A DNA stretch of 64,000 nt from a virus (lineage: Duplodnaviria > Caudoviricetes): positions 99,913 through 163,912 of the IMG/VR virus record IMGVR_UViG_3300010365_001248. One strand, written 5' to 3'. The notes under the pieces were generated by a model. That model worked only from the letters and a program-made list of their open reading frames with translations, was not told the DNA's origin and searched no databases. The stretch's first letter is position 1. The number at the start of each line of letters is the position of its first letter. Below are positions 28,362 through 64,000 of this stretch, in pieces. The translations under genes were made by a program, and so were the position numbers.

Positions 28362-31300
28362 TTAAATCTAACCTTGTAGGATAAATGACTTATAAGGATT
28401 AGCTACACATACACCACAGTAACCCATGATACCCTTAACTTGACCAGCAACTAGTGTAGAAACTTCTCCACCTTCTTTACCAGTACCACGACCAGGACCA
28501 TTCTGTACGTAAGGAACATATTCAGCTCCCTTAACAGTAAGCATCTCAATAGGTGCGTGTCCATTATTAGTTGAACCTGAAGTTAGGTCAAGACACATAC
28601 CGAAAGGATACTTATACTCTCTTTCAAGAGTTCTATCCATCTTAAATGAAATAGTATTATTCATATAAGAATAAGAATTGAAAGTAGCTCCTACTTTAAT
28701 CTTACCATTCTCCTTTGACCATAGCCAAGCTCCATCTGTACGATAGTGAGCTAGATAATCAAATAGAACTCTCTGAACAATACCAAATAACTGAGGATTA
28801 CATACAAATAAGAATGTATTTCCTTCAGGACTATCACACTTAGAAATCATCTGAGTGATGATTTGTTGGAATGTATTAACTGTAAAGTTATTTGCAGCGT
28901 ATTTGCTTGCAAAACGTGAAACCTGAGCGATAAGACCATCGCCACCTTGAATCATAATGTTAACTTTCTATTACTAGAAAGATCAGACTATATCTTTAAC
29001 TTATATATTCAAAAATATATCCTTTACAAACTCTTCTTTCTTTTCTACATACTTTTAAACACGAAGGAAATTCCTTTTTACAATCAGTAATAGAATCCCA
29101 AATTTTAATTAAATTATGATCTTTATCATATTGAGCAATTTTTACAGGATCTTTTTTGTAGTAATTTATTTCTGGTAAAACATCTGTTTTTAAATAACTC
29201 CAATAATAATTATTACATGGAGTATTTAATTTTATATGTTTTATCATGGTTGAATGAGTTACTTTACAAAAACGACATGCTGCTCCTAAAGATTGAAAAG
29301 TTTTATAAAATTTTTTATCTAAAGTATAGCAATAACAATTTCTTTTTTGCACAAATAATTTATTAGATTTTTCATTTAAAAAATCATTAATATCCTCATT
29401 AGCATATAAAAAATAACATTCATATTTTAGTACTCTCTCATTAATAATTCTAATACATTCTTGTTTAGGTAAATCTAAACCGTTTGCCATTTCTTGAATA
29501 TTTTTATATTTTTTAATTAATAATCCTTCTTTATTATATTGATAAATACCATTAGTAGCATTCATTTTATAATTTTTTGGATTAATATAATTTGAATAAC
29601 TAAATATATATTTTTCATATGCTTTTTCTTTTAAAATACAAGCAGATATAGTATCGTGTCCTAAATTTAATTTATTAGTACATTCTGTAATAGAATTATA
29701 AGTATTAAGTAAATTTCCATTTAAATCAAAAACATAAATTTGTTTACAATGTCTTGGGGGAATTTTTCCTCCAGGAATAAGATTATAAACATCTTTACGT
29801 TTAATAAATTCTTCAGTAACTATTTCTGCCTCTTTCTATAAAGCTTCTTTTTCAGTATTATAAATAAATAAAGTAATTCTTTTAAAAGAATTAACTCCAT
29901 ATTTTAAAATAGCTCTATGAAATAAAGTTTTGCCTTTATTATAGCTAGAAGGCTTATTTATAAAAGCACCACATCCTAAATATCCATCAAATTCAAATGG
30001 ATTTTCTGTTTTATGTACTCCTATATAAAATTTTTGATTTTTTAAATTAATTGTTATATATACGATATATTTTATTAAGCTATTTCCCATTTCCATTAAA
30101 TTAATTAATGTACTCCTTAAAAGGATAGTCGTTGAACTTTAAGTACGATTACTTTTAAAGCCTATCTTTTGTACTTCTTAGCTGCTGATTGTCCTAAATA
30201 TTAGGAGTTTCCAGCAATTAAAGAAAATTCAGTCTTAATATTACTATTAAGCTGCCCATTTTAGTTTAGGTCTACCAGTAGATCTACTAATCCAAGTAGA
30301 TTGTCCATCTACGGACATTGTTGATTTACCAAATAAAAGTTCGCCCTCACGTGCACATAAGAAATTCTTATGAATAGTCTCATCAAATGCTGGGAAGTTA
30401 AATAGAGCTTCAGAAGCTTTACCATTTCCTTCACCTTTAGCAATAGAGATAAGTTTATCTTCCATTAGAGCATAACGATCTGATTTAGAATCTTCTACAC
30501 GAATCTGAGTAATATAATTACGCATCTTCTCAGTTGAAGATTGATATTTAACAAACAATTAATTCAAATAGTTTCCTATTTGTTTAGACTATCTCTTAAT
30601 TTAAATATTTAAATATGAATCCTTTACAAAAATTTCTTTGTCCTTGAAGAACTTTATTAGCATTAGAATATCCTGCTTTTCTACATAAAGTAAGATTTTC
30701 AAAAATTTCTAATAAATTTCCTTTTTTGTCATAACGACCTATTTTAGGACTGTTTTTAGTATTAAAAGATTTAGGTTTTTTGGTCTTTATTTTTTTCATT
30801 GTGGGTAATTTTTCATAAGACCATTGATAATTTAAAAAAGTACCTCCAGTACGAATAGCTCTAGAAATATGAGATCCATTAGGTAATGTAGGATCTAATG
30901 TTCTAGCTGCTATATTTAAACCAGAAAAGCTTCTAATATAATTACCATCTAAATCATACATATATACTTCTTTTTTAGGATTTTTTAGATTATCTTCATT
31001 TAATCTTCCTCCTAAAGCTAAATTATAAACATCAGTTCTTTTTAAAAAATCTTTATCTACTAAAAAAGCTTCTAATTTATAAGCATCTTCCTCATTATTA
31101 AATTCTTTTATAGTGGTTCTAATAAAATTTTTTATTCCATATTTATTTACTGCAAACTAAAAAGGAGTTTTTGAATTTTTATAGGAAGCAGGTCTAAATA
31201 TATTAACTCCATTTCCTATGTAACCATCAAAATCATCAGATTCTGTACCATGTACTCCAATATATATTTTATTATTAATTTTATTAATAGTTTGATATAC

Positions 31301-33442
31301 TATATATTTCATATTTAAATTTTAAATTTATTCCATTTCGGAGTTTATTTCTCCTACATCCATTCGGATTAGTCGTTGAACGTTCTTTAGAGCTTCCTAA
31401 AAGGCTTGCTTGATCTAAAGCTTCGCTGCTGATTGCCATTTTACAGGTTTCCAGCAATTAAGAATATGATTATACTGAGGCAATGTTTAAATATCAGTTT
31501 ACCACAGTCAGACATTTCTGGTTTACGATTGGAAATAAATCTTGTTAAAGTACCAGCAGAATAAGTTTCAACAGCGTGTTCTGCTATTACATCAATAGTA
31601 GAATAATCATCTGCCATAGCTTGAGCAGGTACCTCATAAAGATTATCAGCCATACGTGTAGGATGTCCAATTACACAGAACTGCTCACCATCATCATCAA
31701 CTTTGAAATATTCATCAATTTGGTAATAATTTTCTGCAAAGTAGAAATATAGATCAGATCCTTTCTTTACAGGAGCAGCTGCCATAGGTACACGTTTAAT
31801 TTCATTTGTTTCCAAATATATTTCTATATATTACTATATAGTTTAGACTATATCATTTACTATGTTTATGATATTTAAAAATATATTCTTTACAATATTT
31901 ATCTCCAAGCATAATATTTTTTAAATTTGAGGATCTTAAATTATATTTTTCTTTAACTTCTTTAATAGAATTTAAAGTTTCTATAAAATCTCCATATTTA
32001 GTAAAAATATCTACTCGAATACTATTTCCATGTGATGTGGGTTTTTCAGGAATAGTAGTTTCTTCTTGTAAAGATATATAAAAATTTTTATACCAATTAT
32101 TGTAATATCTAAAAATATCAGATATTTTACTCCATGAGTATAAATTTAAAATTGGCATAATTTCTTTTCCAATAAATTTCCCTATAAATTTATGTTCTTG
32201 GTAAACATAATATGTTAAATCTTTATATTGGAGCCTAGGTTTAGGTTTAAAACAATCAGTTAATTTATAAGATATATAATACTACTTTTGACATAAAGAT
32301 TCTAATTTGATATTCTTATTTATATTTGCACATGTAGTATTTAAAAATTTAGCACATTCTGATTGTGAACTAAATTCATTTAATAACTTACCATCTTTAT
32401 TATATAAATAAACTGTTTGAGGTTCTTTAGTAATATAATCATTTATATTAATATATTCAGAATAACTCCAATAACTATTTAAAAATTTATATTTACCATA
32501 TATAGGGGAATGAAATTTAGTAGCAGGATATCCATAAAACTCAAAAGCATCTTTAGAATATTCCCATTTTTTAACTAAATTTCCCTCTAAATCAAATTGA
32601 TATAAAGGAATTCCGTTATTATTACAAATTCCTCCAACTACAACATTATAAACATGTGACTATTTAATAAATTCTGTAGTTACTAAAGCCTCTTCTTTTT
32701 TATAGGCTTCTTCAGGAGAATCAAATTCAAATAACGTAACTCTTTTAAAAGCAGCTGGTCCATATTTTTTTACTGCACATTGAAATGGTGTTTTAGGATA
32801 TTTATATGTAGAAATTTGCTATTCATATACTCCACAACCTAAATACCCATCAAATATATCAGGATTTTCAGTTTTATGAACCCCTATATATATTTTATAT
32901 TTACCGTTTATTTTTGATTTAAAATTTATTGTTAGATACACAATATATTTCATAGTAATTCAGTTTTTTAATTATTAAAAAATAATTTACACTTCTCAGT
33001 TAGTCGTTGAACGCTGTTGTAATTACAACCACGCTGCTGATTGTCCTAATGGTCTAGGAGTTCCCAGCAATTTAAAGAATTTTTGTTATTATTCGATATT
33101 AAATATCGCGGAGGTCTCAACTAATGAAATGTTTAATCTCCCCAGATTAAACTTTAAGACCATTTATGTTAGTTTAAGTATTTTCAATATATTTTACAAT
33201 ATAAAGGAGCAGGAAATTTACTCATATACCATATTTTCTAGTCCCTTAAATTCATCAGACTTTTTATCTTTTGACCAAATATTTCCTAGTGCTTCTGTTA
33301 AGAAAGTAATAGTATTTTCTGGATATAAACGAGATAAAAGACCTAGCTGATCAGGACGTTTACCTAAGAATGCAGAAAAGTCCTGATATGTACGTGTCTT
33401 GCCCATTTCAGGTCTCTTCGTCATAAGTTTAGAAACTAACAT
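28362..33442 (-). CDS. Major capsid protein, 5 exons (33442-33220, 33142-33135, 31812-31501, 30555-30268, 28952-28362), 473 aa spliced
   Basis: Exons total 1422 nt; junctions give MVYE-WEI-ETNEIKR, SDCG-FVKYQS, TGRP-IQGGDG; every 5' splice site is U|AAA and every intron ends in G. Confidence 0.88.
28953..30267 (-). mobile_element. Group I intron 4 of MCP with homing endonuclease
   Basis: Core motifs AATTGCTGGAA, AATCAGCAG, GTTCAACGACTA, GATATAGTCT; terminal G at 28953. Confidence 0.9.
28996..30096 (-). CDS. GIY-YIG homing endonuclease with NUMOD1-type repeats (TAG=Gln)
   Basis: YIVYITIN..NQKFYIGVH; repeated YQY.K.G.LIK units; joins two ORFs over TAG at 29836. Confidence 0.85.
30556..31500 (-). 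mobile_element. Group I intron 3 of MCP with homing endonuclease
   Basis: Same P/Q/R/S core motifs; GGT|AAAC 5' site; TTG| 3' site. Confidence 0.9.
30596..31312 (-). CDS. GIY-YIG homing endonuclease with NUMOD1-type repeats (TAG=Gln)
   Basis: MKYIVYQTIN..NNKIYIGVH; 717 nt; TAG at 31157-31159. Confidence 0.85.
31813..33134 (-). mobile_element. Group I intron 2 of MCP with homing endonuclease
   Basis: Core motifs at 33000-33075 and 31840-31856; P1 GGAGAUU/GACCUCC with U.G at the splice site. Confidence 0.88.
31853..32953 (-). CDS. GIY-YIG homing endonuclease with NUMOD1-type repeats (TAG=Gln)
   Basis: MKYIVYLTIN...KIYIGVHKTENP; 1101 nt; several in-frame TAG; TGA stop overlaps intron S element. 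Confidence 0.85.
33135..33142 (-). other. 8-nt micro-exon of MCP (GGGAGATT; supplies W-E-I)
   Basis: Restores frame between exon 1 and exon 3; flanked by G| and U|AAA. Confidence 0.8.
33143..33219 (-). other. 77-nt core-less group I-like mini-intron (intron 1 of MCP)
   Basis: P1 GAGU/GCUC with U.G, 8-bp P10 with the micro-exon, GUAA-capped hairpin, terminal G; no P3-P8 core. Confidence 0.75.
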
Positions 33443-46404: not shown

Positions 46405-48811
46405 ATATTTTTTATAGTATCATTATAAGGATTTCCATCCTTCTATTGTTTAAGTTCCAAATCAATCTGTTTTTCTTTAAGTGCAATTTCTTGTGTTTTA
46501 TAAGTACGATTTGTTTGAGCTTCATACCATTTAACTTGATAATCTAAGTTAATTTTATGTTGTTCTAATCGCATTTTTTCTGCATTTAAGTATTTTAATT
46601 CAGATTGAGCTACATCTAATTCTTGTTGTAATTGTGTATTCTAATTAGATAATTCTTGAAGTTTTTGTTCTAATTGTTGTATCTAATCATTTTCTTTCTT
46701 TTTAATAGCTAAAGCCTAATTAATTTTAGCTTTTAACTCAGAAAGACTTTTTGTAGTTAAAGCTTCAAAAATTGTAGATGCATCTAATAATCCATTAGAA
46801 ATAAAATCAGGAATTAACTGTTTAATCTACATTAATTCTTCCATAATCTAAGTAGAAGGAACTATATGAATATCAAAATCAGTTACTGTAAAATATTCAG
46901 GAAGTGCTGTAAAAATTTTCTATTGATTATGTCCTAAAATTAAAGTTCCTGTAATTCCGTTTTTATATACTGTTTTAGCAATATTTAAGCTATCTATTAA
47001 AATTTCATTTGTTACCATATCCATTTGTTGATAAATAGGTTTAGTTATTTTAAACGAATTTTCAACACCTTGTTTAATATTAGATACGGCATCTCGTTGT
47101 TCTATACCATTAAGTCTTTCTCTAAATACTCCTGTAATTTGACTAACTTCTTCTTCAATAGACTATAAAGCTAAATCTATAGCTTGTATAGCATTAGGAG
47201 ATAAAGTATCATCAAATCCATTAAATATAGTATTTAAAGGAGCACTGCCATCAATTCTGCCTTCCTATGTAGTGTCAATCATGGCTAAACCATTCTTTTT
47301 GTAAGCTTCCCATTTTTTAACACGTTCAATAAAATCTGGTCCTAAATTTTTTGGAATCATAGAAAGATCTAGAATTTGCCCTTTAACACCACTATTAGCT
47401 ACAAGAATATCTCTATAGTAATGTAAAAGGTCATACTACATTATCTTCATTAGGGTCGTTAATCCTAACCGTTTACACTGCTCTAATTTTCATTAGAAGT
47501 TGAGACTATATCATACTTAATATTATTAATAATTTTTATATTAAGTTCCCGCACTTCGATTGAACTTTCAATCTACATAATAGTCGTTGAACCTTCCTAA
47601 AAGGCTTGGCTGCTGATTGCCCTCGACTTAACGTTAGGAGTTTCCAGCAATTCACGGGATTTATACAGGACTAGTAAAAGTCAATCCTGTTGATGAGCAC
47701 ATTTTAAAATTAAACTATATGGCTAACTAGAACGATTTAAATAATATACTCCATTAATACTTAAAGAACATTTTTTAGGATTACTTATAGATCTATAAGT
47801 ATTATCATCTACTGGATTAATAATATAAATATCTCCACCAATTCTAATAACAGAATATCTGTGCATAACATTATTTGCATCTACATCTAACCATTCAACT
47901 TCATAAACTGGAATTAAATGATTATTTAAAGAAGTTCTGTCTTGTGTAGGTAAAATATCTTTATCTTCACCCTAAGTTATTGGATGTAGATATTCTATAG
48001 AATTAATCTGTATTCTTTTATAATTAGCTTCACTAGTAGATTCTATCTCTTTTTTTATTTTGTTTCTATTTTCTTTAGAAATTTTATTTCCATACATAGA
48101 TAAAATAGTGGAAGGAGTGAGCCATCTTCTAGCTACTGCTTTATTAGACTCCTTAACATAAGGAGAATTTGGATTCATTTCAATAAAAGTATCTCGTGGG
48201 TCTAATACTTCTATATTAATATTATTGTTCGCAAGGGATGGTTTAACTTGATAATAAGTATAACCAGTAATTAATAAATCTAAAAGGAGCATCCTTAATT
48301 TAGTTACTATATCAGCATCTTTAGATTGTAATAAATACTGTATTACATTCTGTGCAGCTATTTCATACTCAGATATAAAATTTTTATCTATATCACTAAT
48401 TAGAGTATCTAATTGCTATTTAATATGAGTATCTGTATTTTCTTGCCCATTAATTTGTTTTAATAAAAAACGGGTTAAATGTTCTTCAAGTTCTTTTTTA
48501 ACTGCTTGCGTAATAGCTAATTGTTTATCTCTAAAAATATTGGAAATTGTAGATTCATCTTTACAAGAAACTTTTGGAACAATAGGAATTCCTAAATATT
48601 CACCAACTAAAGCATCTATGTGCTTTCTAAGTAAAGGAGTGAATTTTACTGATGTTGGACTTCCTATTCCAAAATTTTCTTCTAAATATCTAAATTGTTC
48701 AGCATCTCTTTTACCATTATAATAATTGTAGGCTCTTTGGAGTTCTGTTTTATCATAAACTAATTCCCCAATAATAGAATTAGTCTATTCAATTAATTCA
48801 TCTTTTGTCAT
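46401..48811 (-). CDS. Portal protein, 2 exons (48811-47684, 47438-46401), 721 aa (TAG=Gln)
   Basis: AYNYYNG...FTPLLRKHIDALVGE...QQD|QYDLLHYYRD...TGVFRERLNGI; spliced length 2166 nt. Confidence 0.9.
47439..47683 (-). mobile_element. ORF-less group I intron in portal (245 nt)
   Basis: P1 CAGGAU/GUCCUG, P10 UACUA/UAGUA, same core as MCP introns, terminal G. Confidence 0.92.
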
Positions 48812-62397: not shown

Positions 62398-63177
62398 TTA
62401 CTGATTAATTTTATAAATTATCTATCCTGGAGAAGATGTACCAGCAGTTCTATATATTCTATAAGATTCTGTTAAAGAAGAATCATGCTGATATACATTT
62501 AAAGTATTAATTTGAGAATAATTAACAGCAGTTCCCATAGAATCTTTAATAGAATTTATAGTATATTTAGATGGCACTATAAAGTATGTATAGGCTCCTG
62601 CAATAGTATTTGTTACAGTGTGGGATTTAGCTGCAAAAAATTCTCTAACTACACAATCACTATCATTATCCATATCATGAATTTCAGTAGCAGTTAAAGA
62701 AGATTTAGTACTAAATATTAGTTTAAATTTGCCCTCTATAGTTACTGGTAATGATTCTGTAAGTACATTACCTGTATTATCTTTAATACTAAAATTAACT
62801 GTTTTTGAAGCAGTATCTTTTTCAATAGTAATAAGTTTTTCTTTATATCCTGATTCAGTAGTAATTGGAAAGTTAGTTCCGTCAATTACTATTTCAGTTA
62901 CAGGATTAGATTGTGTAGTAAAATTAACTCTAGCAGTAATATTAGTATTTATACCTTTTTCTACTTTTCCAGGATTCAAACTTTGTGACCATGTAGGTGC
63001 TTTATATGGAGTAATTAATGTAGAAAGTAATTCCTAAATACTTGTAAAAGTATCTCCTTTTTTAATTCCACCAATATCCATAGTAGCTATTACTTGCGGA
63101 GCACCTACAGCATTAGAATCCATTATAATAGGATCTGTAGTACCACTTTTTATTTTATCATAAACGAACTATGTCAT
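62398..63177 (-). CDS. Beta-rich decoration/fibre protein (TAG=Gln)
   Basis: ATG 63177 in frame with 62422-62979; IGGIKKGDTF...YTYFIVP; resembles 42465-43316. Confidence 0.65.
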
Positions 63178-63181
63178 AATT

Positions 63182-64000
63182 TTATTTATTAGGTTTTTTA
63201 ACATATCTTAATTGGAGTCCCTGAACTAAATCTATAGAAGGTAATATTTCTATTTCTGGATCTAATAAAGAAATATCTGCATATTTAGCTTCTCTATAAG
63301 TATTTAATAATTGACTAGAAACTAAATCTTTAGTCCAATAATAATAATCTGATTTTTCTTCACCATTTTCTATGTGCCCAGGAGTAAAAATTAATACTTC
63401 AAAAGTATTTTTAAAATAAACTATTTTATAAGTTTCTTTATCCTCAATATGATCTATATTAGCAGCTAATTCTAACCAATCTAATTCAGTAGGTTCTTCT
63501 AAACTTCTGTAGTAGAATCATTTATAGCAAATTCCCAATTAGAAATACCATATTTATCAAGATTTTTATCTATAATTTCTCCATCAGTTAAATTATAATT
63601 CCAATCATTTTTAGGATATTCTTTAAGGGCTTTTACTTTTTGATGTTTATAATTTTCAACTTCATCCCACATACTCTTTGTAGAAATCTTGTCTGAAAAT
63701 CTATAAGTCCCATTAGGTACTTCTGTAGTAGAATCATTTATAGCAAATTCCCAATTAGAAATACCATATTTATCAAGATTTTTATCTATAATTTCTCCAT
63801 AAGCTACAATATTACCTGTATATAAAGGAGAATCAGCTCCTAAATTTGCAGAATTCCAGAGAGTACCGATAGAAAAAGTTAGGTCTCCATATAGGTCTAC
63901 TGTACTTACGTCTAAAGCTCCACAACCACAATTACAACCTTCGTCTTCTTGTTCCGTTGACCCTACTAATTCGAAAGCCCCTACTACATCTACTACTGTC
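63182..64000 (-). pseudogene. C-terminal part of a DUF1566/C-type-lectin-fold-like protein, frameshifted at an 82-bp duplication
   Basis: LWNSANLGADSP..TG...YGE in one frame; PTELDWLEL...YYWT...GLQLRYV in another. Confidence 0.55.
63503..63800. repeat. Exact 82-bp direct repeat (63503-63584 and 63719-63800)
   Basis: Identical sequence acttctgtagtag...atttctccat. Confidence 0.95.

Follow-up and report, generated by a model that had tools for sequence, protein, structure and literature searches.

This analysis concerns a 77-nucleotide (nt) insert in the major capsid protein (MCP) gene of a crAss-like phage, carried on the minus strand of a 64,000-nt stretch of viral DNA (positions 99,913 to 163,912 of the IMG/VR record IMGVR_UViG_3300010365_001248), which is referred to at its full length as the window. 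The insert (33143..33219), here called the mini-intron, is followed by an 8-nt micro-exon, GGGAGATT (33135..33142), and then by intron B, a complete group I intron of 1322 nt (31813..33134). An earlier note on this DNA had proposed that the insert is a core-less satellite intron spliced with the help of another intron. Judged from sequence comparison and folding, the mini-intron is, by a slight balance of probability, a degenerate and non-autonomous group I intron derived from a full-length intron found at the same site in sister phages (intron A), which would be spliced first, by the core of intron B, in an order set by a hairpin that the two elements form together. The parts of this reading differ in strength: support is strong for the gene model of a mini-intron and a micro-exon, good for the descent of the insert from a group I intron, and only indirect for its dependence on intron B, although reliance on a neighbouring core appears to be the best-supported mechanism for its removal.

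An eight-nucleotide exon in the capsid gene

Exon 1 of the capsid gene (33220..33442, minus strand, as are all features below unless stated) comprises 74 codons and the first base, T, of a Trp codon. It is homologous to the N-termini of crAss-like capsids, the Crass_capsid Pfam match falling on the downstream open reading frames (ORFs) of relatives, and it ends with ..AAT ATG GTA TAT GAG T at 33220. Since AAA follows directly after this terminal T, the unspliced frame stops at TAA. Joining exon 1 straight to the exon that begins GAA ACA AAT at 31812 gives GAG TGA, again a stop; inclusion of GGGAGATT, which supplies bases 2-3 of Trp75, Glu76 and Ile77, gives TGG GAG ATT (Trp-Glu-Ile) and the frame MVYE-W-E-I-ETNEIKR.

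Relatives that lack the insert read this segment without interruption. Mini-free phages more than 95% identical at exon 1 (P0009, P0011 and P0015) have a continuous ..NMVYEWEIETNEIKR.., and an intron-less capsid of 48% identity reads FEWEVETNYIKR; the pattern YEWxxETN predicted in the earlier note for intron-less homologues was recovered as YEWEIETN in the former and as FEWEVETN in the latter. A tblastn search of GenBank phages with exon 1 and the next exon returned two records in which both matches lie just 6 nt apart, and the 473-amino-acid (aa) ORF of MT835470 contains ..SMYFEWEVETNYIKR.. in one frame. The 90% protein cluster that includes the exon-1 peptide of the window has 18 sequences: members of 200-201 aa carry an unbroken ..GLENMVYEWEIETNEIKRVPMAAAP.., those of 88-89 and 77 aa proceed to ..YEWEI or YDWEI and then enter an intron (intron B), and those of 74 aa stop at the same place as the window. 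A library-wide phmmer search gave 64 homologues, and those of at least 95 aa, together with the longer cluster members, were aligned (47 sequences); the Glu-Trp pair is found in 43 of them, the four exceptions diverging upstream of the site. The micro-exon is identical in all 19 mini-bearing loci aligned.

The boundaries of the mini-intron are uniquely set by comparison with the insert-free relatives, and the proposed splice coordinates and frame hold on the minus strand. A single intron with shifted splice sites was also considered and rejected: the sole open option from U to G would join Tyr73 to Glu78 (MVY-ETN), has no guide pairing and loses the near-invariant Glu-Trp.

The arrangement is also a recurrent one. 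Contigs were fetched for the cluster members (43 in total) and then classified, their flanks being 96.5-98.4% identical to the window. The mini-intron is present in 24 of the fetched metagenome loci, from more than 10 accession series and including contigs of 165-173 kb, and an assembly artefact was rejected, the same arrangement being present in dozens of independent assemblies. Five variants of the mini-intron were found, with changes at positions 5, 15, 58 and 65 and a 1-nt insertion near 44; its last 12 nt, the micro-exon and the first 31 nt of intron B are invariant, and the guide nearly so. In the 13 loci with both flanking exons, the proposed spliced frame has no stops and shows 21 codons with synonymous changes only versus 8 with amino-acid changes, a pattern indicating purifying selection on the spliced capsid frame to either side of the insert. 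The preserved P2 pairing, the near-constant guide and last 12 nt, and the variable interior suggest that selection also acts on the RNA structure of the mini-intron. Given the many samples, the five variants and the stop-free, selected frame, a dead or artefactual allele is very unlikely; an insert that is maintained in the population must be dealt with during capsid expression.

Derivation of the mini-intron from a group I intron

The mini-intron appears to have kept the substrate side of a group I intron, namely the P1/P10 guide, a GNRA-capped P2 and a 3'-terminal G, and to have lost P3-P9 and the endonuclease gene. It starts with AAAUUUCCU GCUC and ends in G (33143). The GAGU of exon 1 pairs with GCUC (mini-intron positions 10-13) and places a U.G at the splice site, as in a group I P1, and directly 5' of this strand AAUUUCCU pairs with the entire micro-exon GGGAGAUU in an 8-bp P10 that includes two G.U pairs; the P10 strand and the adjoining P1 strand together make up the guide (33207..33218). 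A P2 hairpin of 6 bp with a GUAA tetraloop follows (33188..33203). The P10 pairing and the terminal G are likewise those of a group I intron, and each of these elements had been described in the earlier note, as had the start with AAA after a U, which is shared with introns B, C and D of the same gene (all begin AAAC after U).

The catalytic part is missing, also in agreement with that note. The Rfam group I model (RF00028) gave one match within 32940-33240 (43.4 bits, E 4e-10), running from 33145 downstream, and this match represents intron B with the micro-exon as its 5' exon rather than the mini-intron. The core strings of the sibling introns (P4, P4', J6/7-P7 and P7'), among them AATTGCTGG, AATCAGCAGC and GTTCAACGACTA, do not occur in 33143-33219, and the P3-P8 core with its guanosine-binding P7 is thus absent from the 77 nt. 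With P3-P9 lost, the mini-intron would be unable to catalyse its own removal. On its own it folds no better than shuffled sequences (z -0.31), and neither its 3' 37 nt nor the sequence past about position 45 significantly resembles introns A, B, C or D, whether at their ends or inside them. A repeated or mobile miniature element was rejected because the 77 nt occur only once in the 163,912-bp genome. A separate observation is that the first 34 nt of the mini-intron (33186-33219; guide and P2) resemble a stretch of the intron B endonuclease gene at about 32484-32519 (B 616-651): 29 of 35 positions match in L039, where none of 1000 shuffles reaches the score (5 of 1000 for the window copy), and the endonuclease gene of intron A has no such match.

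The group I ancestry follows from the presence of a full-length intron A at the identical site in sister genomes. Four allelic states were distinguished among the fetched loci: no insert (L044); the full intron A only (L005, L006 and L011-L013), with 1292 nt inserted between GAGT and GGGAGATT; intron B only (L003, L037-L043, L045 and L046), inserted between GGGAGATT and GAAACA; and a mini-intron of 77 or 78 nt together with intron B (the window and the 24 fetched loci mentioned above). Five further contigs (L032-L036) have an insert at the intron A site and end before its type can be read. The first 17 nt of intron A, which hold the P10 and P1 guide, are identical to those of the mini-intron, and the Rfam model recognises P1, P2 and the core in intron A (42.5 bits, E 6e-10); Rfam searches on whole loci overlooked introns A and B, and both were detected by short-range searches. 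The P2 of intron A, UGUACU-GUGA-GGUACA, corresponds to UAUAUU-GUAA-AAUAUA in the mini-intron, so that three pairs differ and the 6-bp pairing with its GNRA loop is kept. Introns A and B have the J3/4-P4, P4' and J6/7-P7 strings in common. These comparisons provide good support for descent of the mini-intron from intron A or from an intron closely related to it. The satellite-intron interpretation of the earlier note has therefore gained a group I origin, through the full intron A that occupies this site in sister phages, and a gene model confirmed by insert-free relatives. The four states that coexist in the population constitute ready-made experimental constructs.

Coupling to intron B and possible routes of removal

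All mini-bearing loci long enough to tell also contain intron B, and among the classified fetched loci neither a mini-intron without B nor a full intron A together with B was found. JGI metagenomes and IMG/VR were scanned with an exact pattern for the mini-intron 3' end joined to GGGAGATT-GAAAC, the signature of a mini-intron without B, and only chance matches in unrelated genes came back; the pattern for the mini-intron with B gave one unrelated match in IMG/VR, and a search of IMG/VR for related loci with exon 1 gave nothing.

Folding predicts a two-part hairpin between the two elements (33113..33161), made from the 3' third of the mini-intron, the micro-exon and the first 22 nt of intron B. 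Its inner part, GUUUAAUCU-GGGG-AGAUUAAAC (33152-33131), has 9 bp and a predicted dG of -9.2 kcal/mol (z -3.96); the loop starts with the terminal G of the mini-intron, and the 3' strand includes the 5' splice site of intron B. The outer helix pairs mini-intron positions 59-66, GGUCUUAA, with B positions 15-22, UUGAGACC, over 8 bp. The whole predicted structure, of 57 nt and 17 bp, has a dG of -15.8 kcal/mol (z -2.69), a value reached by 2 of 200 shuffles. As UUGAGACC overlaps the guide of intron B, GACCUCC (33116-33110), the hairpin and the P1 of B would be mutually exclusive.

The 5' end of intron B differs between the two backgrounds. Mini-free B begins with GGACUAC..., or with UGAC... in L037 and L038, and its guide GAUCUCC is exact for GGAGAUU, whereas B linked to the mini-intron starts AAACAUUUCAUUAGUUGAGACCUCC. 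Four substitutions (G1A, G2A, U to G at B17 and U to C at B21) separate the mini-linked from the mini-free form within the paired segments. Each of them strengthens the pairing with the mini-intron, and the one at B21 replaces an A-U pair in the P1 of B itself by an A.C mismatch. Between backgrounds, intron B is 94% identical overall, 80% over the first 50 aligned columns and 72% over the last 36.

In the pathway proposed here the mini-intron would give P1, P10, P2 and the terminal G, and the catalytic core would be provided by intron B, 8 nt downstream, with core sequences near-identical to those of intron A. The hairpin would hide the guide and the 5' splice site of B, leaving the P1 of the mini-intron as the only one able to dock in the B core; with its own guide masked, the folded core of B would take the P1 of the mini-intron first. 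Guanosine would attack between GAGU and A, and exon 1 would then attack the 3' site of the mini-intron, in an ordinary group I transesterification. Excision would join exon 1 to the micro-exon, restore UGG and remove one strand of the hairpin, upon which the P1 of intron B (GGAGAUU/GACCUCC) could form and B would splice normally. The spliced model predicts the RNA junction TATGAGTGGGAGATT and the capsid peptide MVYEWEIETNEIK / GLENMVYEWEIETNEIK. Removal at the RNA level, the role of B as core donor in preference to C, D or a trans-acting excised intron, and the order of events are what we infer. By analogy with the insert of T4 gene 60, the remnant likely persists by occupying the cut site of the intron A endonuclease, which would let the genome escape that enzyme.

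Several points weigh against this reading. The P1 of the mini-intron has just 4-5 bp, and the core that would have to bind its terminal G is located downstream of that G, an arrangement that to our knowledge is undocumented for natural introns. For a 156-nt fold the advantage over shuffled sequences is weak (z -1.63). The variant A65C weakens the outer helix, with intron B unchanged, and the A58 of this variant can pair with U23 of B. Exon skipping, in which exon 1 would be joined to ETNEIKR, would yield a stop, and the pathway would need to avoid it. Moreover, the mini-intron may represent a single lineage, in which case its co-occurrence with B and the changes at the B 5' end would not be independent.

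The same chemistry may be performed by a helper other than B, that is, by any related core acting in trans or in cis at a distance, a possibility which we regard as unlikely. P1 docking in group I ribozymes is sequence-independent, at least five introns of the genome have the P4/P4'/J6-7/P7 strings in common, and the 8-bp P10 could still form if B spliced first. Candidates would include the two other introns of the transcript, C and D, no fewer than two introns elsewhere in the genome, and linear introns that, once excised, would work as multiple-turnover ribozymes, perhaps when B is already gone. A helper of this kind, however, leaves the hairpin and the remodelled 5' end of B unexplained; reactions in trans are slower than those in cis, and the fetched loci offer no mini-intron without B.

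A translational bypass of the T4 gene 60 type, in which ribosomes would take off at GAG (Glu74) after B splicing, slide over about 80 nt and land on the GAG of the micro-exon, would produce MVYE-IETNEIKR (predicted peptide MVYEIETNEIK / GLENMVYEIETNEIK). The take-off GAG is followed by UAA within a small predicted hairpin (GAGUA/UGCUC), as in bypass of the gene 60 type, and the matching downstream GAG is preceded by a G-rich stretch; but a hop between the two GAG codons would not restore a collinear protein. The insert interrupts the Trp codon in phase 1, after its first base, so that any hop loses Trp75 and Glu76; Glu-Trp is kept in 43 of the 47 homologues and in every sister phage that lacks the mini-intron. 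The gap from GAG to GAG is about 80 nt versus 50 nt in gene 60, and the hairpin with the 5' end of B would have no role in bypass since it exists only before B splicing. Bypass is thus considered improbable. It is a little more improbable still that the insert simply stays, in a defective allele that is complemented or in a capsid made of two polypeptides (residues 1-74 and a restarted fragment), or that the RNA is cut and resealed by a protein enzyme. For Zeta-group crAss-like phages, 'unknown forms of gene fragmentation' have been reported (PMC7886860), which would be compatible with such an outcome; against it, the allele recurs as an assembled genome in many samples, with five variants and purifying selection on both sides, the sole downstream in-frame ATG falls past the conserved EWxxxxNxIKR motif, and the ATG within the mini-intron is out of frame and missing in two variants. 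Taken together, that the mini-intron is a natural helper-dependent, or satellite, group I intron cut out by the core of its neighbour in a hairpin-gated, two-step pathway is to us an even call.

The surrounding locus and comparison with known systems

Intron B has the guide GACCUCC, a P2, a P3-P9 core and a terminal G at 31813, and it contains a GIY-YIG homing endonuclease gene (31853..32953) that is open only if in-frame TAG codons are read through; in relatives the gene is intact, with ORFs of 352-364 aa. The window copy of the intron is 1322 nt long versus 1279-1282 nt in other mini-bearing loci, the surplus being in the endonuclease region, and the P6 hairpin (B 103-122, 33013-33032) carries about 11 linked substitutions in 5 of 19 related loci, which look like compensatory stem changes. 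Many distant crAss-like capsid ORFs also end a few residues past the EW motif, mostly after EWEV or EWEI (P0018, P0028, P0029, P0031, P0032, P0034, P0038, P0046 and P0047); from these endpoints, the site of intron B looks like a family-wide intron hot-spot.

Downstream of intron B, the capsid gene continues with the exon ETNEIKR...SDCG (31501..31812), intron C (30556..31500), the exon FVKYQ...TGRP (30268..30555), intron D (28953..30267) and a last exon, IQGGDG... (28365..28952), whose penultimate codon is TAG (28368-28370). Introns C and D are also group I introns with GIY-YIG genes, and TAG occurs in-frame in all three intron-borne endonuclease genes (31853-32953, 30596-31321 and 28996-30138). 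The relative L045 has a TAG where the window capsid has CAA (Gln), and the distribution of these codons fits a reading of TAG as Gln in this phage group. Outside the capsid gene, the same P4/P4'/J6-7/P7 strings recur in two further introns, at 47504-47652 of the window (minus strand) and at 63160-63321 of the genome (plus strand). In L005 and L006 (8005-8639) the following capsid intron carries a LAGLIDADG_2 gene and not a GIY-YIG gene, and in some sister phages the later capsid exons are split differently by extra introns. The intron content of the capsid gene is highly polymorphic inside one phage species.

Group I introns are defined as self-contained ribozymes. If the proposed pathway is true, the mini-intron would be a non-autonomous form of them that occurs in nature, as non-autonomous transposons and degenerate group II introns are among their own kinds of element, and the capsid production of an abundant gut phage would hinge on the cooperation of two selfish elements. 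It would also offer a concrete way in which competing introns 8 nt apart may settle their conflict, and possibly a defence against a rival endonuclease. Gene callers and intron finders that seek cores or endonucleases miss such inserts, and essential genes of intron-rich phages are consequently truncated or mis-framed; helper-dependent introns could lie behind some of the unexplained frameshifts and short interruptions that have been reported for crAss-like genomes of the Zeta group.

In the literature on mini-, degenerate or core-less group I introns in phages, no description of such an intron was found, and the closest systems each share only some of its features. Yutin et al. 2021 (PMC7886860) reported that capsid genes of crAss-like phages from the Delta and Zeta groups contain group I introns, and showed a capsid ORF in five fragments in which three of the four spacers encode endonuclease domains. 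The phage studied here is similar to theirs in the gene affected, in its size of about 164 kb, in the read-through of TAG and in its many introns; in that work, however, introns were recognised via protein domains alone, and neither a core-less intron nor a micro-exon was described. The insert of T4 gene 60 is likewise a short non-coding interruption of an essential phage gene, with a stop codon after the last codon before it. That 50-nt gap interrupts no codon and has a matched GGA codon on either side, and a hop restores the protein, whereas the mini-intron splits a near-invariant Trp codon and retains the guide pairings and the terminal G of a group I intron.

Degenerate group I introns of lichen-fungal nuclear rDNA have also lost sequence needed for catalysis; they do not self-splice in vitro and yet are removed in vivo (PMC8527467). 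These introns are of about 200-300 nt, keep much of their fold and reside in rRNA, and host machinery, not a neighbouring intron, is thought to be needed for their removal. Exons only a few nucleotides long, with group I introns on both sides, similar to the micro-exon described here, are known from mitochondria, with 3 nt in Podospora and 1 nt in placozoan cox1 (PMC8971849, PMC5436844); those examples are organellar and not from phages. The nearest parallel for cooperation comes from tandem group I introns around a short exon, which can work as a composite ribozyme able to use the distal 5' splice site (PMC10136302). Similarly to introns I2 and I3 of Twort orf142, the pair in the Coxiella 23S rRNA and engineered tandem Tetrahymena introns, the capsid locus has two group I elements separated by a very short exon, of 8 nt here and of 23 or 34 nt in Twort orf142 and Coxiella (PMC10136302). 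In those systems both introns possess complete cores and cooperation results in exon skipping; in the capsid gene a core is found only in the downstream intron B, and cooperation would have to lead to inclusion of the 8-nt exon.

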